A stretch of 62,372 nucleotides of DNA from NCBI GenBank assembly GCA_964484145.1, contig CAZAED010000001.1, positions 20,790 to 83,161 on the forward strand, written 5' to 3'. Of the stretch, positions 5,839 to 61,706 are shown piece by piece. Position 1 is the stretch's first letter. The number at the start of each line of letters is the position of its first letter. Source of the DNA: an uncultured Candidatus Saccharibacteria bacterium (GTDB lineage: Bacteria; Patescibacteriota; Doudnabacteria; UBA920). The notes under the pieces are model-generated. The model saw only the letters and a program-made list of their open reading frames with translations. It was not told the origin of the DNA and did not search any database. The translations under genes and the position numbers were made by a program.

Positions 5839-5842
5839 CGAT

Positions 5843-6397: not shown

Positions 6398-6526
6398 AAG
6401 TACGGAATTTTAATTAATACACTACATATGCCTACAAAAATTCTGTAGTTTTTTATTATGGATTTTTATTCTTAATTCATAATTCTTACCTCTTCACTTA
6501 TTTCATTCTACCACCTCCCAAAGCCA

Positions 6527-6555
6527 TTGACAAAAAGCATAAAAAAGTGTAGATT
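6527..6555 (+). promoter_or_regulatory. Sigma70-type promoter for the GC-rich non-coding region
   Basis: TTGACA (6527-6532), exact 17-nt spacer, TAGATT (6550-6555). Confidence 0.5.
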
Positions 6556-6561
6556 TTCACT

Positions 6562-13856: not shown

Positions 13857-13883
13857 AAAACTTGCTTGCACCACATTTAACTA

Positions 13884-13925
13884 CAAAGGTGACCGTTGTG
13901 CCGCACAATGATCACCTTTGTTTTA
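13884..13925 (+). terminator. Terminator of the ABC operon
   Basis: caaaggtga (13884-13892) / tcacctttg (13912-13920), followed by tttt. Confidence 0.6.
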
Positions 13926-14691: not shown

Positions 14692-14833
14692 CAGCGTCAT
14701 CATATCAACACGGTGGCGAGCCGGATTACACCCCGCGCTCGCCTACCACACTTGTTTTTTTTATATAAATCTGGTAAAATCACTTTACCTTTAAGTCAAT
14801 CAGGTGTCGCTGGTTGATGCGGGGACAATTTTA

Positions 14834-14861
14834 AATCTTAAATCATATATCTTAAATTTTT
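14834..14861 (+). repeat. Heptamer array (aatctta family) abutting the rpsT start
   Basis: aatctta aatcata tatctta aattttt, then ct plus the ATG at 14864. Confidence 0.85.
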
Positions 14862-16179: not shown

Positions 16180-16407
16180 AAATTTCCTTTACTTAAGCCA
16201 ATTCCGGTATTACTGGAATTGGCTTACTTATAAGTATTTTAAGTACGTTCCAAAATAGAACGAACTACCCGGAATTTCCGGATAGTTGAACTATTAAGCA
16301 ATTTATTAATAGTTCAATAATTTAAAAATGCACATTTTCCTTGTGCATTTATAGTATACAATCGTTTACCTAGTGTCAATTCAATTTATCCACAACTGCG
16401 CAAAATT

Positions 16408-16747: not shown

Positions 16748-16792
16748 ACGCTGATTGGTCGCTGATAGGTACGCTGATAAATCGCTGACAGC
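16748..16792. repeat. Degenerate ~11-mer array (cgctgat x4) 4 nt upstream of the ATG at 16743
   Basis: acgctgattgg tcgctgatagg tacgctgataaa tcgctgacagc. Confidence 0.8.
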
Positions 16793-17486: not shown

Positions 17487-17500
17487 TTGGTATTTTACTA

Positions 17501-17535
17501 AATCTTACATCTTATATCCTAAATCTTAAATTCCC
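17501..17535. repeat. Heptamer array (aatctta family) spanning the polA stop and the HD-gene leader
   Basis: aatctta catctta tatccta aatctta aattccc. It supplies the last polA codons (EFKI-stop). Confidence 0.85.
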
Positions 17536-20299
17536 CCATCTCTCCCCAATTATCCCCCACCTTACCCTCAACTTTAATTGGCACACTAAGAGAAATAGCC
17601 TGTTCCATAAGAGGAATTAACTTCTTTGCCCACTCCTCCACCTTGTCCTCCCTAACCTCAAAAACCAATTCGTCGTGCACCTGAAGAAGCATACGAATTT
17701 CAGGGTTCTCTCTTTCTCTAATTCTCTCTTTCTCTAATTCTCTATTTATATTAATCATCGCCACCTTAATTACATCCGCGGCAAGCGACTGAATAGGAAA
17801 ATTCACAGCCGCGCGTTCCGCCGCAGCTCGAATAAAAAACTGCCCTGACTTTATTTCCGGAAACTTTCGCATTCGGCCAAGCTCGTTACGCACAAACCCT
17901 TCCTGATTTACCTGTAACTTTACCTGCTCAATATACTGCTCAACCTGCGGGTAAGCCTCAAAATATTTTCTTATATATTGTTTGGCATCGCCCATTGTCA
18001 TCTCACCTACGCGGGAAGATAGTCCGAACGAAGATACTCCATACAAAATTCCAAAGTTAATGGTCTTAGCATCCCTGCGCATATCTTTTGTAAGAGCTTC
18101 CTGACTAACGCCAAAAATTTCCATAGCGGTTTTGCTGTGAATGTCTTCACCATTTTTAAATACTTCCATCATTTTTTTGTCCTGCGCCAAATGCGCCACA
18201 ATACGAAGTTCTATTTGAGAATAGTCGAGCGACAAAAGCTTATAGCCTTTTTCCGCCACAAAGGCTTTACGTACCTGACTACCAAGGCCTTCTCCACGCA
18301 CGGGTATGTTTTGTAAGTTTGGGTCTATACTAGAAAGCCTACCCGTAGCCGCAATGGTTTGGCTATAACTAGTATGCAGTCTGCCAGTTTTTTTATTTAC
18401 CATTTCTGGTAAGGTTGTTAGGTAAGTGCTATAAAGTTTTGTAACTTCCCTATACTCTAAAATTTTGGGAATTATATCGTGCTGACCTAACATTTTTTCT
18501 AAATTATCGGCCGATGTAGACACGCCTGTTTTAGTGCGCTTGTTGTTAGTAGCTTCCAATTTAAGTTCGTCAAACAAAACTTCTTTCAGCTGCTTAGGTG
18601 AAGCTATATTAAATTCCCTGCCAGCTAATTTGTGAATTTTCTTTTCTAAATCTTTTATGTCTATTTCCGCCTCCCCGGCAAGACGGTTTAAAAGCCTAAC
18701 GTCTAACTTAATGCCGTTTAATTCCACATCTGCCAAAACTTCTACTAAGGGCATTTCTATTTCTTCAAAAACTTTTACTAGTCCGTTCTTTTTAAGTTCA
18801 GGCTCATAAAGTTCTTTAAGCCTTAGCGTCATATCTACATCTTCGCAGCAATACCAAGAAACTTTTTCCGGCGCTACCTTGTCCATGTTAATTTGCTCTT
18901 TGCCTTTGCCTATTAAGTCTGTAATAGGCTGCATTTGGTAGCCAAGTTCGTTAAAAGCAAGCGCGTCTAGTCCATGTTGGCGAGTGCCGGCGTTTAGTAG
19001 GTACGATGCGATCATGGTGTCAAAATTGATACTAGATATTGGATATTGGATATTATGCAAAACCTGAGCGTCGTACTTTATGTTGTGGCCTATTAACTTA
19101 ACTTTACCCGATGTAAGCAGAGTTTTTAGTTCAGACGATGATGTAAAAAGCTTTGTGGGAATATAAAAAGCCTTACCTAGTTTAGCACATAGCCCCACCC
19201 CCACTAATTCCGCGGTAATTGGGTCAAGACCCGTAGTCTCTGTGTCTACGCTTATTTCTGAAGCAGATGATAATTCTTTAATTGCCTCTTCTAATTTCTT
19301 TTCGTCATCGACAAATATATACTCTTGCTTCCCAATAGATTTTATTTCTTGATTCTGATCTGTAATGTCCCCACTTGTCACTTGCAACTTGTCACTTGTA
19401 ACTCCTTTTGGCAATTTTGCCAAAAGGTTCCTAAACTCCAAACTCTGAAACAACTTCACAGTTTGCGACAAGTGTTCTTGGTCTAATTCATACGCTTTAA
19501 TTTCCGGGTCTATGCCTGGGACATTGCAAACTATAGTAGAAAGTTCATACGACATCCGAGCTTCTTTTTCTTGTTCTTTTAAAAGTTCCAAAATACGCGG
19601 ACGAATTTTGGTTCCGGTTTTTCCTGCGTCAATTGCTTTATAAAGTTCATCGAGCGATTTAAAATCTTTTATAAGTTCACTTGCGGTTTTCTCCCCTATA
19701 CCTTTTACGCCCGGAATGTTGTCAGAAGGGTCACCCCTAAGTGCTTTATAGTCCACCATTTGGTCAGGATTTAGTCCAAACCTAGCTCTTACCGCTTTAC
19801 TGTCGTAAATGACCGTGTCTGCCAGTCCTTTGCGCGGAGTGTAAATTTTTACTTTGCCGTTTACTAGCTGCAGGGTGTCCATATCTCCGGTTAAAATAAA
19901 TATCTCAGAATTCTCGTGGCTTTTTTCATGAAAATGTTTAGACAAAGTGCCTAAAACGTCGTCCGCCTCATAGCCTTCCTTTTCGTAAATTGGCACGTTC
20001 ATTGCGCGAAGTACATTTTTAATAACCGGTATTTGGTCGTACAAAGCTTGGTCAGCCTTAACCCTTGTGCCTTTGTACTCTTTATACATATTGTGCCTAA
20101 AAGTCGGCCCGGCTAAGTCAAAAGTCGCAGCTATGTGCGTAGCCTTAATTTCCTTCATAGCCTTTAAAAATATAGTTAAAAACCCAAAAACCGCACCCGT
20201 AGGCCTGCCGTCTTTGGTAGTTAAAGTAGGCAAAGCGTGATAAGCCCTATGTACCAAAGCATTGCCGTCTATAAGTAAATATTTTTCTTTGTTAATCAT
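17519..20299 (-). CDS. polA: DNA polymerase I
   Basis: 5'-nuclease LLIDGNALVHRAYHA, 3'-5' exo region (VDTETTGL) and polymerase motifs DYSQIELR, RRDAKTINFGILYG, QVHDELVFE. The start is the ATG at 20299. Confidence 0.95.
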   Translation of the reverse strand: MINKEKYLLIDGNALVHRAYHALPTLTTKDGRPTGAVFGFLTIFLKAMKEIKATHIAATFDLAGPTFRHNMYKEYKGTRVKADQALYDQIPVIKNVLRAMNVPIYEKEGYEADDVLGTLSKHFHEKSHENSEIFILTGDMDTLQLVNGKVKIYTPRKGLADTVIYDSKAVRARFGLNPDQMVDYKALRGDPSDNIPGVKGIGEKTASELIKDFKSLDELYKAIDAGKTGTKIRPRILELLKEQEKEARMSYELSTIVCNVPGIDPEIKAYELDQEHLSQTVKLFQSLEFRNLLAKLPKGVTSDKLQVTSGDITDQNQEIKSIGKQEYIFVDDEKKLEEAIKELSSASEISVDTETTGLDPITAELVGVGLCAKLGKAFYIPTKLFTSSSELKTLLTSGKVKLIGHNIKYDAQVLHNIQYPISSINFDTMIASYLLNAGTRQHGLDALAFNELGYQMQPITDLIGKGKEQINMDKVAPEKVSWYCCEDVDMTLRLKELYEPELKKNGLVKVFEEIEMPLVEVLADVELNGIKLDVRLLNRLAGEAEIDIKDLEKKIHKLAGREFNIASPKQLKEVLFDELKLEATNNKRTKTGVSTSADNLEKMLGQHDIIPKILEYREVTKLYSTYLTTLPEMVNKKTGRLHTSYSQTIAATGRLSSIDPNLQNIPVRGEGLGSQVRKAFVAEKGYKLLSLDYSQIELRIVAHLAQDKKMMEVFKNGEDIHSKTAMEIFGVSQEALTKDMRRDAKTINFGILYGVSSFGLSSRVGEMTMGDAKQYIRKYFEAYPQVEQYIEQVKLQVNQEGFVRNELGRMRKFPEIKSGQFFIRAAAERAAVNFPIQSLAADVIKVAMININRELEKERIRERENPEIRMLLQVHDELVFEVREDKVEEWAKKLIPLMEQAISLSVPIKVEGKVGDNWGEMGEFKI
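17706..17753. repeat. 16-nt tandem repeat x3 inside polA
   Basis: ttctctctttctctaa x2, then ttctctatttatatta. The 48 nt are in frame and encode INRELEKERIRERE just before motif C. Confidence 0.9.
19027..19054. repeat. Heptamer array (ggatatt; reverse complement of ccaatat) inside polA
   Basis: tgatact agatatt ggatatt ggatatt, translated as HNIQYPISS. Confidence 0.9.
19372..19406. repeat. Heptamer array (cacttgt x5) inside polA
   Basis: cacttgt cacttgc aacttgt cacttgt aactcct, translated as GVTSDKLQVTSG in the inter-domain linker. Confidence 0.9.
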
Positions 20300-25669: not shown

Positions 25670-25878
25670 TTTATTTTTGCCTGCCCCGTAGTAAACGCCA
25701 CAGATTGTGAGATTATACGAGCGCAAGATTGTTAATTTTTGTTTCTAGCCGGTAGTTACGCAAATTTTAGCGTTTTACTACACGGGGTTTCTATTTTGAT
25801 TAAACTGATTTTGGTTTAACCAAATATTTTGGCTATCTCTTGCCTAATTTTGGGCAGAAAGATAACTTAATTTCTTTA

Positions 25879-25907
25879 ATTATAGCACAAACAAATATTT
25901 TTGGCAA
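25879..25907 (-). promoter_or_regulatory. Consensus promoter of the giant gene
   Basis: Minus strand: TTGCCA (25902-25907), 17-nt spacer, TATAAT (25879-25884). Leader of about 200 nt. Confidence 0.55.
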
Positions 25908-25923
25908 ATTTTTTCTTTGCCAA

Positions 25924-25976
25924 TAAAAAAGCGCAGGGTGATGTCTGATCGGTAGATCGAGACAAAGCACCCTGCG
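25924..25976 (-). terminator. Terminator after the GC-rich gene 26029..26904
   Basis: cgcagggtg / caccctgcg stem (25932-25940, 25968-25976), with a T-run on the minus strand (25924-25930). Confidence 0.6.
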
Positions 25977-26028
25977 GCCTAACTGCTGTTAGCGGACGGA
26001 CACGTGTCCGCCGCCAAAAGAGAGATAG

Positions 26029-26904: not shown

Positions 26905-26950
26905 TTCCCTCTCCTACATTGAATTCCCAGCTAAAAACTCTGGGGGAAAC

Positions 26951-26992
26951 TAGACAAAATTAGTAACTAGTTACTCATTACTAATAACTAAT
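26951..26992. repeat. Heptamer array TAnTTAC x6 in the leader of the GC-rich gene
   Basis: tagtaac tagttac tcattac taataac taattac tatttca, flanked by imperfect inverted repeats ctgggggaa / ttccccag. Confidence 0.9.
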
Positions 26993-27097
26993 TACTATTT
27001 CATCCAAATTCCCCAGAATTTTACTAATAACTCTCTCTATAATCCTCCTAAGGATATTTATAAAAGAACATCTGGGCACAGTTGGCACAGACATATA

Positions 27098-27126
27098 ATT
27101 ATACACCTTTTTGACCATTTTGTCAA
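27098..27126 (-). promoter_or_regulatory. Consensus promoter of the GC-rich gene at 26904
   Basis: Minus strand: TTGACA (27121-27126), 17-nt spacer, TATAAT (27098-27103). Confidence 0.6.
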
Positions 27127-27202
27127 GATTTTAATATAAATTACCCTTATTTAAGCAATAAAAAACCACCCCCTCTTAATGGGAGTGGCTTTTACCAATG
27201 GT

Positions 27203-37895: not shown

Positions 37896-37941
37896 AAAAA
37901 TATTTTAAATTGTTTCTTTAAACCAATTTTAACACAAAAAT

Positions 37942-37966
37942 AAAAACCGCGCTTTGCGTGGTTTTT
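37942..37966 (-). terminator. pilB terminator (bidirectional shape)
   Basis: aaaaaccgcg-cttt-gcgtggttttt. Confidence 0.7.
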
Positions 37967-37974
37967 ATATATTA

Positions 37975-38002
37975 CATCCTAAATCTTATATCTTATATTC
38001 TT
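37975..38002. repeat. Heptamer array (aatctta family) between the pilB stop and its terminator
   Basis: catccta aatctta tatctta tattctt. Confidence 0.85.
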
Positions 38003-39646: not shown

Positions 39647-39654
39647 TTTTGTTT

Positions 39655-39689
39655 GAGATATTGGGATATGAGATATTATTGATATTGGG
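39655..39689. repeat. Word array (gatatt/ccaatat family) 8 nt upstream of the pilB ATG
   Basis: gagatattgggatatgagatattattgatattggg. Confidence 0.85.
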
Positions 39690-39818
39690 AAAACCGCCAA
39701 GCAATATCTATAATATCATTCTTAACCTGCAAAAATTTTTGTTTCTTATTCGTCACTAGTTACCCATAACCCGTTACTCATTTAGTATAACATTACTGCT
39801 TAACAAAAAAAAGAGCTT

Positions 39819-42751: not shown

Positions 42752-43792
42752 ATGATTACATCTTCCAATGAACAAATAGAAATAAGCGATATTCCGGAAA
42801 TTTCTCAGCCGGAAGATGTTGTTATTGACATTAATTTACGCCCGCAAAGTTTTGACGAATATATTGGCCAGCAGGAAGTTAAAGACAATTTGGGAATTTT
42901 ACTTACCGCTGCCAAGCAACGCGGAGAAAAAGTTGAGCATTTACTTTTTTACGGGCCCCCGGGTTTAGGCAAAACTACACTTGCCAACATTGTGGCTAAA
43001 GAAATGGGCAGCAATATTAAAACCACATCCGGCCCGGCCATAGAACGCGCCGGGGACTTGGCTTCTATTTTAACCAACCTTTCCGAAGGCGATGTTTTAT
43101 TTATAGACGAAATTCACAGGCTCAACAAAGTTGTGGAAGAAGTTTTGTATCCTGCTATGGAAGACTACGTCTTAGATATTGTTTTAGGTAAAGGTCCGGG
43201 CGCGCGCAGCATACGAATGGACTTACCCAAATTTACTTTAATTGGCGCCACAACCAGAATTGGCCTGCTCTCCAGTCCGCTTCGTGACCGCTTTGGCGCA
43301 ATTTTCCGTTTAGAATATTATTCAGAAGAAGATTTAATAAAAATAATTGGCAGAAGCGCTAAAATTTTAAACTCGGAACTAGAAGCAGAAGCCTTAGCTG
43401 AGCTGGCAAAGCGCTGCCGCTTTACTCCCCGTATTGCCAACCGTCTCTTAAAACGGGTAAGAGATTTTGCCCAAGTAAACGGTCATGTTAAAATAAGCAA
43501 AGCAGTTGCCATGCAGGCATTAGAGCTTTTAAGGGTAGATGCTTTAGGTTTAGACAAAAACGATATACGAATATTAGAAGCGCTAATAACTAAATTTAAA
43601 GGCCAGCCCGTAGGGCTTTCTACCCTTTCCGCTTCAACCGGCGAAGAAGAAGATACTGTTACTGACTTACACGAACCGTTCTTATTAAGACTTGGGCTTA
43701 TAACCAAAACCCCGCGCGGCCGAATGGCAACAGAAGCCGCCTATAAACATTTGGGGATAGACCTTCCGCCCGGCCAGCAAAAGATTCTCTAA
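42752..43792 (+). CDS. ruvB: Holliday junction DNA helicase RuvB
   Basis: [48 protein letters not shown]. Confidence 0.95.
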
Positions 43793-43794
43793 AT

Positions 43795-43840
43795 ATTCTT
43801 GTCATTCATTTAAATCTTTTAATTTTTGTCATTTCCCCCA
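43795..43840 (+). repeat. Leader element of the 'cttgtcat / ttaaatctt' family abutting the ATG at 43841
   Basis: attcttgtcattcatttaaatcttttaatttttgtcatttccccca. Confidence 0.8.
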
Positions 43841-44053
43841 ATGGACTTTACCACCGTCTCTAACCTAATAATTCAAGCCTTCTACTATATACTAGTAGCC
43901 TTGGTTTTATTTTGCAGTATTTTTGGAGTTTACGCGCTTGTTCGCTATGGCCGCTCCAGAACTTTCGCGTTAGTTCTAAGCCTGTCTTATATTTTCTTTT
44001 TCCTAACTGCCCTGTCTCAGTCCTACTCCGCTTTGCAATCCTTACTGTCCTAA
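43841..44053 (+). CDS. Small two-TM membrane protein
   Basis: MDFTTVSNLIIQAFYYILVALVLFCSIFGVYALV... The track ORF begins at an upstream TTG inside the repeat; I use the first ATG. Confidence 0.5.
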   Translation: MDFTTVSNLIIQAFYYILVALVLFCSIFGVYALVRYGRSRTFALVLSLSYIFFFLTALSQSYSALQSLLS

Positions 44054-44085
44054 CTGATAACTAACAACTATCAACTGATAACTTT
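44051..44085 (+). repeat. Heptamer array (taactga x5) ending 3 nt before the ATG at 44089
   Basis: taactga taactaa caactat caactga taacttt. Confidence 0.9.
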
Positions 44086-44088: not shown

Positions 44089-44640
44089 ATGCCAAAACTC
44101 TTCCCCTCACAACTTGATACTGAAAAAATTTATTTAGTTATACGCGAACACTGGTTTCGCCTGCTCCTAAAACTTATTGTGTGGGCATTTTTAGCCGCAG
44201 CTCTAGCCGCTTTCCAATACTTTGGTCCGCAAATCATACCCGGGCTCTTTGAAGGCCGCGCAGGCGCGATTACCCACCTGTTTGAACAAGTTTATTTCTT
44301 AATTATTTTACTGGGACTGTTTTTAATATTAGTTTTTTATTATTTAAACACCCACATAATAACCAACATTCGGGTTGTAGACATAGACCAAATTGGCCTG
44401 TTCTCCCATGTTGTTTCCGAGCTGCATATAGACAAAATAGAAGACGTAACTTCCGAAACCGAAGGAATTTTTGGCACTATTTTTAACTACGGCCAAGTAT
44501 TTGTTCAAACCGCCGCAACTGTTGAACGTTTTGAATTCGACAACGTGCCAAATCCAGCTGGCATAGAAAAACTAATTCTAGATTTATACGAACAAAATTC
44601 TAACTTTGCCAAAGAGGTTAAAGAGGGAGACCACAATTAA
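44089..44640 (+). CDS. Membrane protein with bacterial PH (YdbS/YdbT-like) domain
   Basis: Two TM helices followed by a domain with a pattern like RVVDIDQ.GLFSHVVSELHIDKIEDV...VFVQTA. Confidence 0.55.
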   Translation: MPKLFPSQLDTEKIYLVIREHWFRLLLKLIVWAFLAAALAAFQYFGPQIIPGLFEGRAGAITHLFEQVYFLIILLGLFLILVFYYLNTHIITNIRVVDIDQIGLFSHVVSELHIDKIEDVTSETEGIFGTIFNYGQVFVQTAATVERFEFDNVPNPAGIEKLILDLYEQNSNFAKEVKEGDHN

Positions 44641-44674
44641 CGACTAGCGATTAACAATTGACTCCAAAAAAGTT

Positions 44675-44709
44675 GTTAATCGTTAATTGTTAATAGTTTA
44701 TAGTTTATG
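44675..44709 (+). repeat. Heptamer array (gttaatn x5) running into the ATG at 44707
   Basis: gttaatc gttaatt gttaata gtttata gtttATG. An upstream inverted copy cgattaacaa (44648-44657) pairs with 44673-44682. Confidence 0.9.
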
Positions 44710-45570: not shown

Positions 45571-45677
45571 ATCAACAAATTTGTATTATTTATCATAAAT
45601 AAAAGAAAAAATTCTGTTGGTTTTATTTCAACAATTTAATATTTGTTGTTGACATTCAATCAACAAATTGATATTGT
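45571..45677 (+). promoter_or_regulatory. Promoter plus repeated operator-like motif upstream of TrmB paralogue 3
   Basis: (A/T)TCAACAA(A)TT at 45571, 45627 and 45659, with an inverted copy at 45641-45652. TTGACA (45649-45654), 17-nt spacer, TATTGT (45672-45677), then 6 nt and the ATG. Confidence 0.5.
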
Positions 45678-45683
45678 TCTTTT

Positions 45684-46454
45684 ATGCTAGAAAGTAACTT
45701 AAAAAACCTAGGACTTACGGACAAAGAAAGCGCTGTATATTTGGAGGTTCTTAAACGTGGGCGAGTTTCGCCTACAGAGATTGCGCAAACGTCCAAAATT
45801 AACCGAACCACGGTTTACAGCGTGGCTAAGGAATTAATAAAAAAAGGTTTTTTATTGGAAGATTTGGCAGGAGCAGCAAGTTCTTTGGTTGCGGTACCGC
45901 CACAGGAATTAAAATTTTTGGTTCAAAAGGAAGAGCAGATTTTGGAAAATAAAAAAAAGCTCATAAGCCAAATGGTTAAAGAGCTGGAAAATTTTACCAA
46001 GGACTCCAAATACGCCATTCCTAAAATAACATTTATACAGGAACAAGACTTAATGGATTATTTATACAAAAGAAGCGACGAATGGCATAAAAGCATAATG
46101 TCGCACGACGGCATACTTTGGGGATTTCAAGACCACACTTTTGCCGAACACTATGAAAAATGGATAGAGTGGGAGTGGAAAATTGGGGGACCAAAAAATT
46201 TAAGACTTAGACTTTTTTCCAACGAGTCCGAAATCGAAGAAAAAAATAAAGGCAAAGGCAAAGACTTTGAACGGCGCGTAATAAAATACTGGAAAAAGCC
46301 AAATAAATTTACTGCTTCTATTTGGGTGCATGGTGACTACTTAGTATTTGTGCAAACTCAGGAGAGGCCCCACTATCTGGTAGAAATTTACGATGTGCTT
46401 TTGGCAGAAAATATGCGGCAATTCTTTACTGGCGTGTGGGATGAAATAAAATAA
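45684..46454 (+). CDS. TrmB-family HTH transcriptional regulator (paralogue 3 of 3)
   Basis: MLESNLKNLGLTDKESAVYLEVLKRGRVSPTEIAQTSKINRTTVYSVAKELIKKGFL. Confidence 0.8.
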   Translation: MLESNLKNLGLTDKESAVYLEVLKRGRVSPTEIAQTSKINRTTVYSVAKELIKKGFLLEDLAGAASSLVAVPPQELKFLVQKEEQILENKKKLISQMVKELENFTKDSKYAIPKITFIQEQDLMDYLYKRSDEWHKSIMSHDGILWGFQDHTFAEHYEKWIEWEWKIGGPKNLRLRLFSNESEIEEKNKGKGKDFERRVIKYWKKPNKFTASIWVHGDYLVFVQTQERPHYLVEIYDVLLAENMRQFFTGVWDEIK

Positions 46455-48883: not shown

Positions 48884-48890
48884 ATATAGG

Positions 48891-48994
48891 TACTGAATTA
48901 CAGATTAATAATATTACAGACCAGCCCCGACGTAAAAAGTGCCGGGCTCCGATTATTGCGTCGGGTAAAATCTGCATTATTTGTAATTCCGTAC
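48891..48994 (-). repeat. Leader/MITE-like element upstream of recF (copy 1)
   Basis: Both termini match 51875-51937 in inverted orientation (19/19 and about 24/26 nt). The centre carries an extra GC hairpin cccgacg...cgtcggg. Confidence 0.85.
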
Positions 48995-50300: not shown

Positions 50301-51656
50301 TTACATAAACACCTTATCCATAACTAAATTTATTTCCTGTTTAAAATTCTCCTTTTCTTTTACTAGTTCAGAAATCTTTTCCACAGCGTGCATAACTGTT
50401 GTGTGGTCACGGCCCCCAAAAAAATCACCAATAGAGGGAAAAGAATTATCTAACTCTTTTCGTATTAAATACATGGCAATTTGCCTAGGTTTAACAAATT
50501 CCTTTTTTCTTGACTGCTTTATAAGGTCGTCCATGCTAATATTGTAAAATTCCGCAACGGCCTCAGCAATTTTTCTAGCGGAGGTAACTCGCTTTTTGCT
50601 GCCAATAATGCTGCCTAAAATGTTTTTTGCCTGGTCAAGTACCAACCCCCGGTTTTGCATTTGTTGATAAACCGCAAGTTTGTTTAGCGCTCCTTCCAAT
50701 TCTCTTACGTTGCTCTGAATGTTTTCCGCAATGTAAAAAAGTATGGGCTCTTCTAAGCTTGTGCCTCGCTTTTCCATTTTTGTTCTCAGTATTGCCATGC
50801 GGGTTTCTAAATCTGGAACCGAAATGTCGGCAAGCATCCCCCATTCAAAACGGCTAACCAAACGTTGTTCAATAGAAGGTATGTCTTTAGGCGCCCGGTC
50901 TGAGGTAATAATAATTTGCTTGCCCTTGTCCCTCAGTTCGTTAAAAGTATGGAAAAATTCTTCCTGGGTTTGTTCTTTCCCGGCTATAAATTGAATATCG
51001 TCTATTAAAAGCGCGTCGAGATTGCGGTAAAATTTTTTAAATTCTTCAATTCTTTTTTCTTTTAATGCGTCTATGTAATCGTTAGTAAATTTTTCGCTGG
51101 AGGCGTAAAAAATTTTTGCTTTTGGGTTTTCTTTTAAAAGTTCGTGCCCCACGCCGTGCATTAAATGGGTTTTGCCCAAACCCACCCCACCATATATAAA
51201 CAGTGGGTTGTACTGTCCACCAGGGCTTTTTGCGACCGCATGGCTTGCAGCGTGAGCAAGCTCGCTATTTTTTCCCACAACAAAAGTTTCAAACGTATAT
51301 TTGGGGTTGAGCCCGTTTGAACTTTGGTTTTGTTCTGTATGGGTTTGTTGGTAGTTTTCTTGGGGTTTGTTGGTAGTTTTAGGGGTGTTGGTTGTGTTTT
51401 GGGTTTGGCCGGCCTGGCCAACCTGGTAGCGAATTTCTTTAATTTCTGGCGCTAAGGATTTAAGCGCTTTTAGCATTTCTTGGTGATATTTGTTGTGAAT
51501 CCAGTTTTTGTGAAATAGGTCCGGCACATTCACAATAATATGCGAATCTCCTTTTTCTATAATGCTTGTATTTTTAAACCAGGTATTAAAATTGGCTTTA
51601 CTAAGCGAAATTTCTAAATGTCCTAAAATTGCTTGCCAAAGTTGTTGATTTGTCAT
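50301..51656 (-). CDS. dnaA: Chromosomal replication initiator DnaA
   Basis: NPLFIYGGVGLGKTHL, LLIDDIQF, the sensor/box VII region, and C-terminal DNA-binding GGRDHTTVMHA. Confidence 0.97.
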   Translation of the reverse strand: MTNQQLWQAILGHLEISLSKANFNTWFKNTSIIEKGDSHIIVNVPDLFHKNWIHNKYHQEMLKALKSLAPEIKEIRYQVGQAGQTQNTTNTPKTTNKPQENYQQTHTEQNQSSNGLNPKYTFETFVVGKNSELAHAASHAVAKSPGGQYNPLFIYGGVGLGKTHLMHGVGHELLKENPKAKIFYASSEKFTNDYIDALKEKRIEEFKKFYRNLDALLIDDIQFIAGKEQTQEEFFHTFNELRDKGKQIIITSDRAPKDIPSIEQRLVSRFEWGMLADISVPDLETRMAILRTKMEKRGTSLEEPILFYIAENIQSNVRELEGALNKLAVYQQMQNRGLVLDQAKNILGSIIGSKKRVTSARKIAEAVAEFYNISMDDLIKQSRKKEFVKPRQIAMYLIRKELDNSFPSIGDFFGGRDHTTVMHAVEKISELVKEKENFKQEINLVMDKVFM

Positions 51657-51874: not shown

Positions 51875-51937
51875 ATACGGAATTACAAATAATACAGATT
51901 TAACAGATCCGTAATATCATTAATCTGTAATTCAGTA
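51875..51937 (+). repeat. Leader/MITE-like element upstream of rpmH (copy 2)
   Basis: atacggaattacaaataatacagatt...attaatctgtaattcagta. Internal terminal inverted repeat gaattaca..cagatt / aatctgtaattc. Confidence 0.85.
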
Positions 51938-51944
51938 ACTTTAT

Positions 51945-52079
51945 ATGAAAAGAACCTATCAACCAAAAAAACTCAAACGCCTTAAAAGACATGGGTTTCG
52001 AGCAAAAATGAAAACCAATGCCGGCCGAAATGTAATAAAAAGCCGCCGAGGCAAGGGCCGCAAAAAATTAGCTTTGTAA
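51945..52079 (+). CDS. rpmH: 50S ribosomal protein L34
   Basis: [44 protein letters not shown] (44 aa). It falls below the ORF-track length cutoff and was read directly from the sequence. Confidence 0.95.
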
Positions 52080-52442: not shown

Positions 52443-52707
52443 AATTATAAAAATTATTTTAAATATCCCAGCCTTTGTGGCTGTTGGTATAATTAGTCTA
52501 TACCAAAAAACGTTGTCGCCCGACCATGGTTTGCTTAAAGCTCGCTTCCCGTATGGTTATTGCCGTCACTACCCTTCCTGTAGCGAGTACAGTAAGCAAG
52601 CTATTACTAAATATGGGTTAATAAAGGGTGGGTGGATGGGAATTAATAGGGTTGTGCGATGTAATCCATTTAGCAAACCAAGCGTTGATACAATTAATAA
52701 TAATTAA
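52435..52707 (+). CDS. yidD: Membrane protein insertion efficiency factor YidD
   Basis: ISLYQKTLSP...CRHYPSCSEYSKQAI.KYG..KG......R..RCNPF. Confidence 0.9.
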   Translation: MNKIIKIILNIPAFVAVGIISLYQKTLSPDHGLLKARFPYGYCRHYPSCSEYSKQAITKYGLIKGGWMGINRVVRCNPFSKPSVDTINNN

Positions 52708-52808
52708 TGACAAAAATTAAAAAAATGAACAAAAATGACAAAAATATAGCTGCGCCCGGATCTTAAATTTTTGTCATTTGCGTCGTTTTTGTCACTTTTG
52801 TCATTTCC
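52707..52808. repeat. ~100-nt imperfect palindrome built from ATGACAAAA / TTTTGTCAT words
   Basis: The left arm atgacaaaaatt...aaatgacaaaaat (52707-52745) is an inverted version of the right arm atttttgtcattt...ttttgtcatttcc (52766-52808). The element abuts the yidC ATG. Confidence 0.85.
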
Positions 52809-52812: not shown

Positions 52813-53535
52813 ATGTTTTCAACTATTTACAATACAATAATCTATCATCCACTTTTAAACTTGTTAGTGTTTTTTTATAATATTATTCCCGGCCACGACA
52901 TGGGCGTGGTTATAATTGTGGTTACAATTTTTATTAGACTTTTGCTCGCACCTTCTTTTCATAAGTCGCTTAAGAGCCAAAAGGCTATGAATGATTTACA
53001 GCCTAAGCTTTCCGCGCTTAAGCAGCAGCATAAAGGCAACAAAGAAGCAGAGGCTAAAGCCATGATGGAGCTTTATAAAGAGCATAAAATTAATCCGTTT
53101 TCTTCTTGCTTGCCATTGCTGTTACAGCTTCCAATTTTAATTGGCCTTTATCAGGTTTTTAATACAGCTTTGGGGCATAAGGAAATTACCGGTTTGTATA
53201 GCTTTGTCCACATACCGCAAAATATTAGCCCTTACTTTTTACACTGGGTAGACTTGTCTAAGCCCTCATGGATTTTTGGCGTTATTGCTGGCGCGGCGCA
53301 ATTTTGGCAGTCAAAAATGATGCTAGCAAAGTCTCAGCCGTCCGATGATCCAACCGCGAAAATGATGCAAATGCAAACTACTTACATTTTGCCGCTTGTG
53401 AGTGTATTTATTGCCCTAAAACTACCGGCCGGCTTACCCCTTTACTGGATAGTTACTACCCTCTTTGCAATTGGGCAGCAATACTATATAATCCGTAAAC
53501 AGAATACAGAAGTAATAGTAGTAGGTAGTAAGTAG
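52813..53535 (+). CDS. yidC: Membrane protein insertase YidC (short Oxa1-type)
   Basis: Multi-TM protein with PLLLQLPILIGLYQ and LPAGLPLYWIVTTLF. The start is the ATG at 52813. Confidence 0.9.
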   Translation: MFSTIYNTIIYHPLLNLLVFFYNIIPGHDMGVVIIVVTIFIRLLLAPSFHKSLKSQKAMNDLQPKLSALKQQHKGNKEAEAKAMMELYKEHKINPFSSCLPLLLQLPILIGLYQVFNTALGHKEITGLYSFVHIPQNISPYFLHWVDLSKPSWIFGVIAGAAQFWQSKMMLAKSQPSDDPTAKMMQMQTTYILPLVSVFIALKLPAGLPLYWIVTTLFAIGQQYYIIRKQNTEVIVVGSK

Positions 53536-53569
53536 TATTTAGCCAAACAAACTGAGCAATTCCTGCTGG

Positions 53570-53604
53570 CTACCAACTACCAACTACCAACTACCAACTA
53601 CAAA
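53570..53604 (+). repeat. Near-perfect heptamer array ctaccaa x4 plus ctacaaa, abutting the jag ATG
   Basis: ctaccaactaccaactaccaactaccaactacaaa followed by ATG. A related tagtann array lies at 53511-53541 across the yidC stop. Confidence 0.95.
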
Positions 53605-54078
53605 ATGACCGATTACAACCACATAGAGCAAATAAAGGAAATGATTGAAGGCTTTTTAAAAGCTGCTGGTTTTGAGAGCGGGGTTTCTTACGAAGAAAGC
53701 GTGACCAAAGGCCTGGTTTTTAACATTGCAGCTTCGCGCGATTCTTATTTGTTAATTGGCCGGCAAGGCGCAGCTTTGCATTCTATGCAAACACTGCTTC
53801 AGGCTATGGCGTCTAAAAAATTTGCAGGCTCTAACCCTATATATTTTGCGCTCGATGTAGACGACTATAAAATGAAACGCGAATGGTTCTTAAAAGAAAC
53901 CGCCAGAGCCGCAGTTGAACAACTTAAAAAAACTGGCCGAGCTCAAGGCCTTGAGCCCATGCCAAACTACGAACGTAGAATTGTTCACGCGTACCTACAA
54001 GAACATGCCCCGGAAGTATTTACCGAAAGCGTAGACGAAGAACCATATAGAAGAATAATTATTAGGCAAAAAAAATAA
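53605..54078 (+). CDS. jag: Jag/KhpB-like KH-R3H RNA-binding protein
   Basis: R3H motif region YERRIVHAYLQEH, located after yidC. Confidence 0.85.
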   Translation: MTDYNHIEQIKEMIEGFLKAAGFESGVSYEESVTKGLVFNIAASRDSYLLIGRQGAALHSMQTLLQAMASKKFAGSNPIYFALDVDDYKMKREWFLKETARAAVEQLKKTGRAQGLEPMPNYERRIVHAYLQEHAPEVFTESVDEEPYRRIIIRQKK

Positions 54079-54101: not shown

Positions 54102-55299
54102 AAATTAAAGCCAAAATTATCCCAAACACAACCGCGAGGTCATTTTTAAAGTAAGGGTTGTCTATTTGGCCTTGGGCTAGGAAAGCAATTAAAAATAAGG
54201 CTACTGATAATTTAAATAAATCTTTTTTCTTAAAAAAACCGCGATATATTAACAGACCTATTAGTCCTATAAGACCTATTAGTCCTATTACTCCCGTTTC
54301 AACCCAAAGGTTTAAAAATATATTATGCGGGAAGTTGTGGTCGGGCAGAGTTTGGTCGGTTATTAAGTTTCGATATTCCAACGAATAACCGCCTAAGCCA
54401 AGGCCAAACACGGGCGACTGTTTTATGGCAGCAACTCCGCTTTGCCACAAAGTAATTCTAGAGGAAGCCGACTTTTCGCCTTTAAAAGGCGAGGTGAGGC
54501 GATGGCGAGTGCTGGGAATAAACAGGACAATAATGGCGAATATTATGCCGGCGTAAAAAAATGTTTGCTTTGTTTTTTTATCTGAGGCAATAAAAATATA
54601 AACTAAGGCAGCTAAGGCTAAGCCTAACCACCCTGCTCGAGAAAGCGATAGTATAAGTCCAACTACTCCCAAAAACCAAGCAACCGCTTTTAAATAATTA
54701 ACAATTACTAATTGACCATTTAAACGTGCGGTTTTTAGCGAGGATAATAAATCCGGAATTAAAAAAGCTAGTAAAGGGGTTGCCCACAGGGCATAAAAAT
54801 TTGAATGCACAAAAAAACTCACGGCGCGGCGGGGTTCAAAATCGTTTCCTTGGAACAAAAGCGGCAGACCAAGGCCGGAAAAATACTGTACTATAGCGTA
54901 GAGGCCGGCAAAACCTAGTAACATGTAACATGTAGCATGTAACATGTAACGAGATTTTGGAAATTGTTCGAATAAATATCGGCCAATAAAATAAAGACTT
55001 ATTGGTTGTATAAAAAGTACTAAAAATTCTCCCAAGGTTTTTTGGTTTACTCCCCCTACAAACAGGCTTATGGTGCCTCCTAAGAAAAATAGTCCAATTA
55101 GGTAAAGAACCTTTTGATCAATTTTTTTTATAAACGAGACAAAATTTGCCAGCTTGTTATTTGCGAATATATAAACGGCAAAAATTACCCAAACCAAAAA
55201 TACCCACAACATTAAAATATTTGAGGGTAAGCCAAAAATATTTATTTTTATTGCGTAGGCGGGGGCAATTAAAAGTGTAAGAGGAATTAAGTATTCCAT
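54100..55299 (-). CDS. O-antigen ligase / Wzy_C-family membrane protein
   Basis: More than 10 TM helices; the loop SLSRAGWLGLALAALVY is typical of Wzy_C. The start is the ATG at 55299, directly after the PBP stop. Confidence 0.75.
   Translation of the reverse strand: MEYLIPLTLLIAPAYAIKINIFGLPSNILMLWVFLVWVIFAVYIFANNKLANFVSFIKKIDQKVLYLIGLFFLGGTISLFVGGVNQKTLGEFLVLFIQPISLYFIGRYLFEQFPKSRYMLHATCYMLLGFAGLYAIVQYFSGLGLPLLFQGNDFEPRRAVSFFVHSNFYALWATPLLAFLIPDLLSSLKTARLNGQLVIVNYLKAVAWFLGVVGLILSLSRAGWLGLALAALVYIFIASDKKTKQTFFYAGIIFAIIVLFIPSTRHRLTSPFKGEKSASSRITLWQSGVAAIKQSPVFGLGLGGYSLEYRNLITDQTLPDHNFPHNIFLNLWVETGVIGLIGLIGLIGLLIYRGFFKKKDLFKLSVALFLIAFLAQGQIDNPYFKNDLAVVFGIILALI
54254..54298. repeat. 9-mer array (agacctatt/agtcctatt) inside the O-antigen-ligase-like CDS
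   Basis: agacctatt agtcctata agacctatt agtcctatt actcccgtt, translated as GVIGLIGLIGLIGLL. Confidence 0.9.
54916..54950. repeat. Heptamer array (atgtaac x5) inside the O-antigen-ligase-like CDS
   Basis: tagtaac atgtaac atgtagc atgtaac atgtaac, translated as YMLHATCYMLLG. Confidence 0.9.
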
Positions 55300-57901: not shown

Positions 57902-58073
57902 GTGTATAGTATACCTTTTTTGTCTTTATATTGACAATACTCTTAAGTTAATGTACAGTACGCTTAATTCATAATTTATGAACAAATTTTTTTTACAATC
58001 TGTTGGTTACTATTACGTAAACTCTTTGCAGAGTTTGCGGTAATTTGGATTGTAAATTTATTTAATCCTTTTC

Positions 58074-58110
58074 CCCGCTCTCTGTAAAAGAGAGCGGGGA
58101 TTTTGTTTTA
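58074..58110 (+). terminator. Strong intrinsic-terminator-shaped hairpin
   Basis: ccccgctctct-gtaaa-agagagcgggg followed by attttgtttt. Confidence 0.6.
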
Positions 58111-58125
58111 GTAAATATTTATTTC

Positions 58126-58173
58126 ATTATACCGGCTTGCCCGCCTAAAGCTTCGGCGAAGGCGGGGATCCAG
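58126..58173 (+). repeat. REP-like GC hairpin with ggggatccag tail (copy 2)
   Basis: ccggcttgCCCGCCtaaagcttcggcgaaGGCGGGgatccag. Compare with 11018-11047. Confidence 0.65.
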
Positions 58174-58316
58174 AATTATATGTCATTTCAAATTTTATTT
58201 TCCAACTATTACGCCTATGTACTACTTCTTCCCAAGAGGCTGGTTTTAGGCGCGTGATGTAAAATCATTGTTCCCCTTAACCCGGTCTGTTGGCCGGTAA
58301 TTTAAAGGAGAGAAAA

Positions 58317-58633: not shown

Positions 58634-59797
58634 ATGAATCAAATAGAAGAAATTTTAAGCAGAGGCGTTGAGGAAGTTATAGACAAGGCGCATTTAGAAA
58701 GCCTGTTAAAAGGTAAAAAGAAATTGCGGATTAAGCTTGGTATAGACCCAACCTCCCCTAATATTCATATTGGCCGTGCTGTGGTTTTGTGGAAGCTCCG
58801 CGCTTTTCAGGAGCTGGGGCATAAAGTAGTTTTTATAGTAGGCGATTTTACCGGGCTTATTGGCGATACTTCGGACAAAGAGTCAGAAAGGCCAATGTTA
58901 GATGAAAAAATTATTAAAGCAAACCTTAAAAGTTATTTTGCCCAGGCGGCTAAAATTATAGACCCGAAAAAAGCGGAAATGCATTATAACTCTAAGTGGC
59001 TTAAGAAATTAGGCGCGCTTGAGATTGGCAAGCTGTCAGATCTGTTTGGAATGCACGAGATGTCTGTTCGGGAAAATATTGCCTTAAGGCTTAAGGCTGG
59101 TAAAAGAGTATCGGTGCGTGAATTATTGTACCCAATCTTTCAAGGTTATGACAGCGTGGCAGTAAAAGCCGATGTAGAACTTGGGGGCACAGATCAGCGG
59201 TTCAATTTGTTGGCCGGACGTACTATACAAAAAGCTTACGGGCAAGAGCCGCAGGATATTTTAACTACGCAAATTATGGAGGGTACAGACGGAAGGAAAA
59301 TGTCTTCTTCCTGGGGCAATACTGTAAACATTACTGAAGAGCCAAATAATATGTTTGGTAAAATAATGTCTATCCCAGACAGCTTAATAAAAAAATATTT
59401 TGTTTTGGCCACAAGGGTGGAAATTAGGGAAATAGATGAAATTTTAAAACTTCCAAATCCACGCGATCAAAAACTAAAACTTGCAGAGGAAATAACCAAG
59501 CTTTACCACGGCGACAAAAAAGCTTTGGTTGCTAAAGAAGCCTTTATTAGTCAATTCAGTAAAGGTGAGTTGCCGGAGGAAATAGAAACAAAAAGTTTAA
59601 AATCTGGCAGTTATAAGCTATCAGAATTAATGGTTTTAACAGGACAGGTTTCTAGTAAGTCGGAAGCGCGCAGATTAATAGAGCAAAAGGGTGTAAAGGT
59701 TAATCAGCAAACCAGTGGTGATATTGAGCTTGTGCTAGACGGGCAAAAAGAATATTTGCTGCAAGTAGGAAAAAGAAAATTTGTAAAAATAATATAA
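58634..59797 (+). CDS. tyrS: Tyrosine--tRNA ligase
   Basis: HIGH-type motif PNIHIGRAV, KMSKS-type motif KMSSS, and a C-terminal S4-like domain (SKSEARRLIEQKGVKVN). Confidence 0.85.
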   Translation: MNQIEEILSRGVEEVIDKAHLESLLKGKKKLRIKLGIDPTSPNIHIGRAVVLWKLRAFQELGHKVVFIVGDFTGLIGDTSDKESERPMLDEKIIKANLKSYFAQAAKIIDPKKAEMHYNSKWLKKLGALEIGKLSDLFGMHEMSVRENIALRLKAGKRVSVRELLYPIFQGYDSVAVKADVELGGTDQRFNLLAGRTIQKAYGQEPQDILTTQIMEGTDGRKMSSSWGNTVNITEEPNNMFGKIMSIPDSLIKKYFVLATRVEIREIDEILKLPNPRDQKLKLAEEITKLYHGDKKALVAKEAFISQFSKGELPEEIETKSLKSGSYKLSELMVLTGQVSSKSEARRLIEQKGVKVNQQTSGDIELVLDGQKEYLLQVGKRKFVKII

Positions 59798-59802: not shown

Positions 59803-59828
59803 AAACCCCCTCAAAGCGAGGGGGTTTT
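59803..59828. terminator. Bidirectional terminator after tyrS
   Basis: aaaaccccctc-aaagc-gagggggtttt. Confidence 0.8.
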
Positions 59829-59831
59829 AGT

Positions 59832-60986: not shown

Positions 60987-61706
60987 TTATAAATTAGCCG
61001 ATGTATGAACGGCGATAACGTCTTCGTCGTTCTCTAATGCGGCAAATAAATTATCAACTTTTGGTTTTTGGTCTTCAGTTAAGTCTACGCCTTGGGAAGA
61101 TTCTTTAATAATATCGGCGCGGGCGATTTTTGCTCCGACTAATGTTATTGCTTCTTTAATTTTGCTCAACTCTAGGGGCGTAGTGTATATTTCAAGTCCC
61201 TCGGATGATTCTCGTACGTCATCTGCTCCCGCATCTATAGCCGCCAATTCTATTTCGGATAGGTTGTCAGAACGCTCAACCAGAATCTGCCCTTTGGTAC
61301 TAAATTGCCAGGCAACAGAATTTTGCGCTCCTATGCTGCCGCCGTGTTCGGTAAATATGTGACGAATATTTTGAAATGTTCTGTTGGTGTTGTCTGTGGC
61401 ACACTCAACTAAAAACGCTGTGCCAAAGGAGCCGTAGCCTTCGTATACAACCTCGGTTATGCTGCCTGCTCCCCCGCCGGTTGCAGCTTTTATAGCACGT
61501 TCAATATTGTCATTCGGCATGCCTTGGTCTTTGGCATAGTCTATGGCGCTTTTTAATTTAAAATTTACGCTAGGGTCTCCGCTTCCGCCACCCTCTTTAA
61601 CCGCGATTGATATTTTCTTTCCGAGCTTGGAATATAAAAGCCCGCGCTTTTGATCAAGCACGCCTTTGGTACGTTTTATTTGTGACCATTTACTGTGTCC
61701 GGACAT
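60987..61706 (-). CDS. YebC/PmpR-family transcriptional regulator
   Basis: MSGHSKWSQIKRTKG..DQKRG....KL.K.I..AVKEGG. Confidence 0.9.
   Translation of the reverse strand: MSGHSKWSQIKRTKGVLDQKRGLLYSKLGKKISIAVKEGGGSGDPSVNFKLKSAIDYAKDQGMPNDNIERAIKAATGGGAGSITEVVYEGYGSFGTAFLVECATDNTNRTFQNIRHIFTEHGGSIGAQNSVAWQFSTKGQILVERSDNLSEIELAAIDAGADDVRESSEGLEIYTTPLELSKIKEAITLVGAKIARADIIKESSQGVDLTEDQKPKVDNLFAALENDEDVIAVHTSANL

Follow-up and report, generated by a model that had tools for sequence, protein, structure and literature searches.

Tandem arrays of short units, most of them 7 nt long, recur throughout a 62,372-nucleotide stretch of contig CAZAED010000001.1 (hereafter the window; all positions are counted from its first letter). 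From comparisons with orthologous loci, we conclude that these arrays are probably the footprint of a lineage-specific mutational drive in replication or repair, whose products are filtered by selection. The arrays exceed chance, are restricted in lineage, hold their positions while their units turn over, keep a constant length inside genes, avoid stop codons, and adopt a recurrent hairpin geometry between genes. The clearest case, which the original prediction made from the sequence had already singled out, stands immediately before jag: CTACCAA is repeated 4.6 times at 100% identity (53570-53601), and CTACAAA and the jag ATG (53605) follow.

Judged by its proteins, the window is part of a Doudnabacteria-like genome of the Patescibacteria (candidate phyla radiation, CPR): PolA shares 72% identity with proteins named Doudnabacteria at NCBI, and DnaA shares 74% with the DnaA of a metagenome-assembled genome (MAG) labelled 'Saccharibacteria' and 60% with those of Doudnabacteria MAGs. 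An exact-match look-up of the DnaA protein gave no record. It holds dnaA, rpmH, rnpA, yidD, yidC and jag, beside a GC-skew minimum. The closest relatives came from a PolA protein search (L134, L136 and L135, with PolA 91%, 86% and 83% identical, respectively; L numbers denote compared loci), and a Jag-based metagenome scan added relatives at 68% identity or less, of which about 40 are used here as Jag relatives.

Period-7 arrays exceed chance and follow lineage

Tandem arrays were called by Tandem Repeats Finder (TRF), and expected numbers were taken from 100 dinucleotide-preserving shuffles. The claim that heptamer arrays are pervasive was borne out: 12 period-7 arrays reach a TRF score of at least 40, where 0.02 are expected, and 18 reach at least 30 (1.97 expected). 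Periods 9 (5 observed, 0.04 expected) and 14 (3 observed, 0.36 expected) are also in excess at a score of at least 40, and exact runs at lag 7 and at lag 14 likewise lie above the shuffles. Period 7 dominates, with 12 arrays in the window against one each for periods 6 and 8, and 49 in the Jag relatives against two and six. Half of the strong period-7 arrays (6/12) lie in non-coding DNA, which makes up 8.8% of the window (binomial p = 2.6e-4; about 6-fold enrichment). The shuffles rule out chance and composition as the source of the arrays. We looked for a hyper-abundant k-mer that might seed them and found none, nor did we find known RNA families or tRNAs underlying them. The earlier worry that they might be assembly artefacts proved groundless, because orthologous positions carry arrays in independent NCBI, JGI, ENA and Logan assemblies.

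The density of period-7 arrays is 0.19 per kb in the window, 0.26 in the three close relatives L134-L136, 0.16 in the approximately 40 Jag relatives, 0.013 in 38 other CPR loci, and zero in 841 kb of Bacilli loci. The trait is patchy: L001-L003, which are similarly diverged, lack arrays at the orthologous sites. A dense period-7 cluster was also seen at positions 4576-7562 of L010 (CAZFBK010000011.1), a distant CPR MAG labelled 'Gammaproteobacteria' whose DnaA is 51% identical; the trait would therefore have emerged, or been retained, in at least two Patescibacteria lineages.

The units are diverse, with 47 canonical units among the 85 arrays of the clade. As had been predicted, a few families recur in both orientations (AATCTTA, CCAATAT and CTACCAA; Table 1). 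An exact TAACTGA leader array occurs at a single site (44051-44083); elsewhere there are units with one mismatch and one AGTTATC array within the PolA coding sequence.

Arrays inside genes turn over in register and in frame

The arrays that the original prediction placed within coding sequences do all lie inside real genes, although period 7 is not universal among them: those at 8654 in UvrB, 17706 in PolA and 54254 in the gene for a Wzy_C/O-antigen-ligase-like protein differ (Table 1). Orthologous sites frequently hold a different unit. At the codons occupied by the three FemX arrays, L134 has GGTGACG in place of TAAGATT (site 2), GTCACTC in place of CTACCAA (site 3), and the same ATATTGG; this comparison covers the window and L134. 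The site in the PolA 3'-5' exonuclease domain is filled, at identical codons, by four copies of AATATCC in the window and L134, by 3.5 copies of ACAACTT in L136, and by four copies of AGTTATC in L135. At an unchanged position in the PolA inter-domain linker, L033 carries CGAACAT (3.9 copies). In the polymerase-domain loop before the QVHDE motif the unit is 16 nt long in the window, 8 nt in L134 and 7 nt in L136 and L135, and lengths vary by whole codons only. In the ligase-like gene, an array at about amino acid 140 is present in 13 relatives with at least nine different units, aligned without gaps over a K..LL.T.Y.LL peptide motif; the GTTACAT array of the window itself aligns gaplessly to array-free orthologues. 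Because alignments to array-free orthologues contain no gaps, an origin of the coding arrays by insertion is ruled out. The second array of this gene, which encodes GLIGLIGLIGL, differs between the window and L001 at three positions, each of which makes the window repeat more perfect.

A heptamer array passes through all three reading frames. Wherever perfect repetition would bring TAA, TAG or TGA into frame, the deviant base falls within that very codon (7/7), and coding arrays that face no stop conflict are often 100% perfect. FemX is among the genes with such a stop-avoiding base. These deviations suggest that homogenisation is limited by the reading frame alone and is in other respects coding-blind. 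A repeat of another kind was noted in the dnaA coding sequence (51341-51394), where 2.5 copies of a 22-nt unit (GGGTTTGTTGGTAGTTTTAGGG) contain the reverse complement of CTACCAA; it covers residues of about 87-105, presumably the variable domain II linker.

The behaviour of the coding arrays also bears on whether they are contingency loci, at which the gain or loss of 7 nt would switch genes or tune the spacing of promoters and leaders. Units of 7 nt do shift the frame, one host gene encodes a surface-glycan (Wzy_C-like) enzyme, and copy number does vary between genes, as in the spacer between the 44089 gene and the 44707 gene (44640/44707; 4.4 units in the window against 6.6 in L092). Heptamer phase variation at the hmw promoters of Haemophilus influenzae (PMC8262952) offers a precedent. 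However, every in-CDS (coding-sequence) array keeps the frame in all relatives and has about 4-5 units, and variants one unit (7 nt) longer or shorter were sought among the relatives' orthologues and not found. Phase variation is unsupported because the coding arrays are in frame everywhere; the hosts, moreover, include PolA, FemX, UvrB and DnaA, and the tracts are short beside known contingency loci. We therefore consider this explanation very improbable.

Paired arrays form hairpins that run from stop to start

The original prediction listed an array at 53511 as a separate 3'-region element. It is instead the partner of the jag array: a GTAGTAG-type array that overlaps the yidC stop codon pairs with CTACCAA in one long imperfect hairpin (ΔG -28.9, z -4.2; the antisense strand is also folded). 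A hairpin of at least 15 bp occupies the yidC-jag spacer in 26 of the 36 relatives compared, and its arms are heptamer arrays whose unit differs genome by genome (ATTCATA, TGTTAAA, GTTAATC, TTACTAA and others). Its geometry in relatives is recurrent, the 5' arm beginning at about the yidC stop and the 3' arm ending a median of 8.5 nt before the ATG. These hairpins consist of 5-6 bp helices with one mismatch per 7 nt, which is expected if homogenisation within an arm outpaces matching between arms.

Six window spacers contain a single hairpin that extends from the upstream stop to 2-18 nt before the next ATG; besides yidC-jag, these comprise five further same-strand junctions with z-scores of -2.8 to -6.2 (Table 1). 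The start-proximal arm is G-poor (13% versus 23% G; 28 loci versus 8; p = 1.5e-4). Among the relatives' hairpins the sense strand is the more stable in 12 and the antisense strand in 20, and counts of G.U versus A.C pairs favour neither RNA-level nor DNA-level hairpins; in both comparisons, periodic arms permit alternative registers. The 44640/44707 spacer is 66 nt long in the window, longer in L092 (AACAATT x4 / GTTAATC x6.6) and about 2 nt in L135. This range, from about 2 nt to more than 66 nt, indicates that hairpin spacers are dispensable and resizable. The closeness of arrays to start codons thus results chiefly from their filling entire intercistronic spacers or 5' leaders, from the preceding stop codon or promoter up to the next start.

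Two alternative identities for these hairpins were rejected. They are not intrinsic terminators: they are A/T-rich, span 25-35 bp, and are followed by an ATG rather than a T run, while canonical intrinsic terminators occur elsewhere in the window (e.g., at 59805-59830 and at about 37940-37965). Neither are they copies of repetitive extragenic palindromic (REP) elements or miniature inverted-repeat transposable elements (MITEs), as the unit is particular to each hairpin and sharing is only partial (the rpmH and 48883 leaders, and a 9-nt TTGTC family). With respect to the former, the 3' arm of the dnaN/48883 hairpin is common to the rpmH leader; a block of about 40 nt, GTAATAT.ATTAATCTGTAATTCAGTA.CT.TATATG, is common to positions 51900-51945 (rpmH leader) and 48884-48925 (48883 leader).

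Two further features were seen in L134. Its femX leader (19301-19489) has an insertion of about 83 nt within the 3' arm of an otherwise conserved hairpin; the insertion carries inverted repeats at its ends (CTTTCCCGCCTGCCGAAA ... TTTGGCGGGCAAG) and resembles a MITE. In addition, inverted arrays (TAAAGTG x4.9 at 13464-13497 and CACTTTA x4.6 at 13857-13888) flank a gene for a 114-amino-acid PF05635 (23S_rRNA_IVP / bAvd-like) protein. That gene is also found in L135; the interval from the Fic gene to rpsT in the window lacks it, and it may represent an array-bounded cassette.

Direct arrays fill short spacers and leaders

Shine-Dalgarno (SD) sequences are scarce in the window, a match of at least 4 nt at -17 to -4 being found in 4 of 54 genes. 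Gene leaders are A/T-rich, and their G content drops from 18% to 11% toward the start codon (last 10 nt), a genome-wide trend. Short spacers (32-48 nt) are filled by direct arrays with essentially no predicted structure (ΔG 0 to -2.9; G 5-9% in 3/4). The predicted start-proximal arrays hold up at 14864, 17486, 44089 and 44707 and, in a degenerate (N)AATATC form, at 39646; that at 16743 has a period of 11-12 nt, not 7. As for the 3'-region arrays, the one at 37965 is real, as is the hairpin arm at 53511, while that at 59832 is weak: it comprises ATCTG cores spaced 9-10 nt apart and has no TRF call.

Three fates are evident for these arrays among relatives. The first is in-register substitution: the rpsT-leader array is kept in L134 with substituted units (and is absent from L135), and the pilB 3' array is kept in L134 with TATAAGA as its fourth unit where the window has TGTAATA. 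The second is family replacement, seen in the PolA-HD spacer, where L134 has ATGACAAAA 9-mers instead of TAAGATT 7-mers over a similar length. The third is a private array, that of the pilB leader, which is absent from L134, L135 and L136. The TAACTGA-type array at 44051-44083 is also absent from L001-L003 and L135, and the jag leader of L001 has a single-copy 'taccaacacaATG' at the place of the window's CTACCAA array.

These leader data are where the chief competing explanation has to be weighed, namely, that the arrays act at the RNA level, between cistrons or in leaders, as functional elements of a translation system poor in SD sites; we regard it as possible but rather unlikely, and it would not conflict with the periodicity having arisen by mutation. 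The unpaired, G-poor arrays could then offer ribosomes an unstructured place to land, the role suggested for TAACTGA repeats, and the hairpins may juxtapose stop and start, occlude the start until upstream translation (coupling), or serve as RNase III or stability sites. The single stop-to-start hairpins of six spacers, the persistence of the yidC-jag hairpin despite different sequences, the G-poor start-proximal arm, the structure-free direct arrays, the scarcity of SD matches and a published precedent (PMC4679880) all favour such elements, as does the location of an array at the ATG-proximal end of the long intergenic regions of rpsT, pilB and rpmH. Yet AATCTTA reads in the sense direction ahead of rpsT and in the antisense direction ahead of the HD gene; like arrays occur within PolA, FemX and the ligase-like gene, where a leader function is inapplicable; orthologous leaders of close relatives lack the arrays and hairpins; neither strand is consistently more stable; and G-depletion near starts is genome-wide rather than array-specific. 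The SD-independent translation enhancers offered by the original prediction are possible for the unpaired G-poor arrays, but this idea is weakened by the occurrence of both orientations and by the absence of some arrays or entire hairpin spacers from close relatives.

Other leaders are pertinent to the proposal that the arrays are periodic DNA-binding sites for a regulator, nucleoid protein or replication protein. At 16748-16788, four ATCAGCG cores spaced 11-12 nt apart (about one helical turn) and separated by variable sequence stand just before the ATG at 16743 of an unannotated 111-amino-acid protein; the L134 orthologue of this leader has GGTCAAT cores with an unchanged period, and the site looks like a co-evolving operator or iteron. 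Separately, several leaders are built from a dispersed family of 9-nt units (AATCTTGTC / ATTTTTGTC, reverse complement GACAAAAAT), and they often terminate in ATT(T)CCNCC immediately before the ATG; this TTGTC/GACAA family is present at five or more leaders. Inverted layouts would also suit dimeric binders. Nevertheless, a binding-site origin for the arrays at large is very improbable: the units number in the dozens and are unrelated, they turn over at the same site between genomes that are 83-91% identical, they occur within the coding sequence of essential genes, a period of 7 bp does not keep step with the helical turn of DNA, and a candidate binding protein was not identified. For the minority whose cores are conserved at a spacing of about 11 nt, a role as DNA-binding sites is possible.

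Other features of the window

Table 1. Repeat arrays and array hairpins of the window, with their positions and strands.
Feature	Position	Strand	Details
AATCTTA unit family	5474, 14827, 17499; related 37965		
CCAATAT unit family	5594, 19035, 39650		
CTACCAA unit family	53570; reverse complement at 5370		
yidC-jag hairpin, 5' arm	53512-53545	+	GTAGTAG-type heptamers; overlaps yidC stop 53533-53535
yidC-jag hairpin, 3' arm	53567-53601	+	CTACCAA x4.6; ends 3 nt before jag ATG 53605
Hairpin, 44089-gene/44707-gene spacer (44640/44707)	44633-44697	+	arms ATTAACGA.../GTTAATC heptamers, array runs on to 44708; ΔG -23.8, z -6.25
yidD-yidC hairpin	52706-52805	+	inverted 9-nt arrays AATGACAAA / ATTTTTGTC; ends 7 nt before ATG 52813; z -4.4 to -5.4
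femX-leader hairpin	5766-5839	-	inverted 9-nt arrays GACAAGATT / AATCTTGTC; conserved in L134
Hairpin, dnaN to next gene (dnaN/48883)	48890-48994	-	z -3.3 to -4.6
Hairpin, 45602/45684 spacer	45599-45685	+	z -4.3
Long hairpin	26927-27027	-	core is self-complementary AGTWACT heptamer array (26966-26997); ΔG -43.6, z -5.7
FemX, three in-frame arrays	5370-5404; 5474-5506; 5594-5615	-	CTACCAA; TAAGATT; ATATTGG
UvrB array	8654		period 9-10
PolA 3'-5' exonuclease domain	19026-19056	-	in-frame AATATCC array
PolA inter-domain linker	19372-19403	-	in-frame GTGACAA array
PolA polymerase-domain loop	17706-17747	-	in-frame 8/16-nt array just before QVHDE motif
Wzy_C/O-antigen-ligase-like gene, first array	54918-54950	-	in-frame GTTACAT array, amino acids ~134-145
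Wzy_C/O-antigen-ligase-like gene, second array	54254-54290	-	in-frame 9/18-nt array (GLIGLIGLIGL)
rpsT 5' leader	14827-14857	+	AATCTTA-type; 6 nt before ATG 14864
PolA-HD spacer	17499-17531	-	TAAGATT-type; fills PolA-stop to HD-gene-start spacer, 12 nt before 17486; ΔG -0.1
44089 leader	44051-44083	+	TAACTGA-type; unpaired; small-ORF (43841-44053) stop to 5 nt before ATG 44089; ΔG -2.1, G 9%
44707 leader	44675-44708	+	heptamer array; extends into ATG at 44707
pilB leader	39650-39692	-	degenerate CCAATAT(C); ends ~4 nt before ATG 39646
pilB 3' region	37965-37998	-	TATAAGA-type; 4 nt after pilB stop, upstream of intrinsic terminator
2065/2109 spacer	2064-2098	+	9-nt array, AATCTTGTC family; unpaired, fills spacer; ΔG -2.9, G 7%
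Sister 9-nt array	43793-43840		unpaired; ΔG 0.0, G 5%
9-nt family, all sites	2064-2098, 5766-5839, 43793-43840, 52706-52805		also L134 11185-11206

The remaining observations concern the window as a whole. Compared with the syntenic locus of L001, the proteins show a mosaic of identities, 90-96% for the three genes at 42752-43792, 58634-59797 and 60987-61706 but 45-75% for the genes next to them, which suggests recent recombination or a chimeric MAG. There are also long non-coding stretches (6398-6949, 16180-16407, 25727-26028, 26905-27202 and 57902-58245), and the four for which folds were computed (the last four of this list) are far more stable than shuffles (z -6 to -9). An Rfam and tRNA/tmRNA search of the five stretches gave no match, and they may be candidate divergent CPR non-coding RNAs.

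Templated homogenisation as the favoured explanation

Bearing in mind that units change at the same codons without any change in length, we hypothesize that the arrays arise from a drive that, in tracts of about 28-35 nt (4-5 units), renders adjacent units, and paired arms, similar to one another. Neighbouring 7-nt units would be equalised by transient slipped-strand misalignment and realignment, that is, by short-range templated copying, and inverted arms by template switching between them. The target could be any stretch under weak sequence constraint. Within genes, selection would leave survivors that are in frame, stop-free and length-preserving, and that occupy linkers, loops or membrane segments; in intergenic DNA, whole spacers would be filled, short ones by G-poor, structure-free direct arrays and longer ones by a single hairpin of two inverted arrays that reaches from the upstream stop to about 8 nt before the next ATG. 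Adjacency to start codons would then be a by-product of filled stop-to-start and leader space in a compact, SD-poor genome.

Of the three processes that the original prediction offered, slippage or template switching is accordingly the one best supported, by length-neutral in-register homogenisation, unit turnover at the same codons and stop-avoiding deviations. The pilB 3' array is consistent with it: one unit differs at two clustered positions, and the L134 version matches its neighbours, a change that appears templated. More generally, units and arms that seem to have been made identical by copying a neighbour fit the pattern of template-switch products. Replacement of arrays between genomes as cassettes is possible, but would be superfluous if concerted evolution proceeds at a roughly neutral rate. 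The molecular step itself (misalignment or template switching) and any secondary use of the hairpins are both deduced from these patterns; translational coupling or unstructured landing pads are plausible as a secondary RNA role of the leader elements, and our analysis argues against an obligatory one.

Several observations weigh against this reading. Simple slippage predicts length variants of plus or minus 7 nt and the coding arrays have none, so that in-register conversion must be postulated. The lag-7 signal outside called arrays is weak (10 versus about 4), and copy number is narrow (median 4.3-4.6, maximum 6.6), although the lower bound is in part the detection threshold. Identical unit pairs across the clade number 72 where about 17 are expected; this count is partly inflated by orthologous sites and hairpin partners, but recurrence of units at unrelated loci and genomes above composition is not what purely local seeding predicts. 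Finally, the constancy of the hairpin geometry among relatives and the G-poverty of the start-proximal arm each suggest that RNA-level selection also shapes the leader elements. A bolder version, to which we assign only a small likelihood, is that a distinctive replication or repair activity, or a missing safeguard (a 3' exonuclease or flap-processing function), rewrites tracts of about 30 nt in register into 7-nt arrays, essential genes included, and that the products have been co-opted, as stop-to-start hairpins and structure-free spacers, to organise translation re-initiation where SD sites are nearly absent.

If the homogenising drive is real, this clade amounts to an experiment of nature on molecular drive, in which the coding sequences of DNA polymerase I and cell-wall enzymes are overwritten and nothing but the reading frame halts the process. 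Comparing sister genomes rich in arrays with those poor in them would make it testable why 7-nt repeats dominate bacterial long repeats, and the replication and repair factors that set a 7-nt register would become testable by comparative genomics. The arrays create lineage-specific peptide segments and spacer hairpins; in CPR genomes, these can confound the calling of gene starts, conservation scores derived from alignments, and searches for RNA motifs; and the stop-to-start hairpins are candidates for translation coupling in SD-poor, operon-dense genomes.

Relation to known repeat systems

The original prediction's view that no equivalent population is known was too strong: a heptamer excess and start-abutting TAACTGA arrays have both been published for other phyla. 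In many bacteria, heptanucleotide repeats are the dominant class of long simple sequence repeats (SSRs), with polymerase slippage as the proposed cause (Mrazek 2007, as relayed in PMC4679880 and PMC4692102). The window has the hallmarks of these prokaryotic long SSRs, in that its repeats exceed composition, period 7 predominates, and intergenic DNA is enriched. Further likenesses to the repeats of Mrazek, Guo & Shah (2007), as relayed in those two papers, are patchy lineages, some inverted pairs with stem-loop potential, and occupation of the same intergenic sites in related species by variable sequence. Unlike long SSRs with one G-rich family, the window clade has many unrelated, A/T-rich units in uniformly short arrays (about 4-5 units); unlike known long SSRs in general, it has in-frame arrays in essential genes, in-register turnover without length change and systematic stop-to-start hairpins, and its host is a Patescibacteria lineage.

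TAACTGA arrays end one to a few nucleotides before SD-less start codons in Beggiatoaceae, Cyanobacteria and Bacteroidetes (MacGregor 2015, PMC4679880). They resemble the arrays described here in having 2-6 copies close to the start, mostly no SD sequence and, as regards the direct arrays, a predicted lack of structure, and in occasionally overlapping the end of the upstream open reading frame or lying within one. The array at 44051-44083 has the exact TAACTGA unit in the 'forward' orientation, 5 nt before an ATG, and is the only such site in the window. In Beggiatoaceae, TAACTGA is the prevailing unit (169 sets in one genome), and tandem repetition of related heptamers is rare (PMC4679880); in the window clade, in contrast, it is one of dozens of units and orientation to the gene is inconsistent. 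Compared with TAACTGA-type leaders, SD sequences are rare everywhere in the window, direct arrays are likewise unstructured, and many arrays are hairpin arms; hairpin pairing and concerted evolution inside coding sequences are not part of the TAACTGA description (PMC4679880).

Heptamers of Xanthomonas and Nostoc are treated in PMC4692102, which also mentions heptanucleotides of Calothrix. Cyanobacterial short tandemly repeated repetitive (STRR) sequences, which the original prediction named, are comparable in being tandem heptanucleotides that are mostly intergenic and restricted in lineage. STRR families have few fixed units and can form long arrays. To our knowledge, no in-frame STRR population in essential genes has been described, and the units of the window match no STRR unit known to us; the host here belongs to the Patescibacteria and is not a heterocystous cyanobacterium.

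Template switching has been said to 'universally perfect' quasi-palindromes (PMC6357072), and it elongates palindromes when Okazaki-fragment processing is impaired, as in rad27-delta yeast (PMC5677150). The likeness to such quasi-palindrome mutagenesis (the Ripley model; the Lovett laboratory) lies in a templated, coding-blind perfecting that would explain co-evolving arms and in-register substitutions; it is known, though, as a hotspot phenomenon in laboratory reporters and not as a genome-shaping force that yields 7-nt periodic arrays. The hairpins between cistrons of one operon also recall REP/BIME (bacterial interspersed mosaic element)-type elements and coupling hairpins. REP families consist of many near-identical copies, whereas each hairpin of the window has its own sequence and its arms are internally periodic.

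The literature that we searched with a CPR or Patescibacteria term yielded no prior description of such arrays in CPR genomes. What sets the arrays of this clade apart is the combination of dozens of units, short tracts, stop-to-start hairpins and length-neutral turnover that reaches essential genes. The heptamer arrays most likely reflect a copying bias of replication or repair that is specific to the lineage, and not a new regulatory code.

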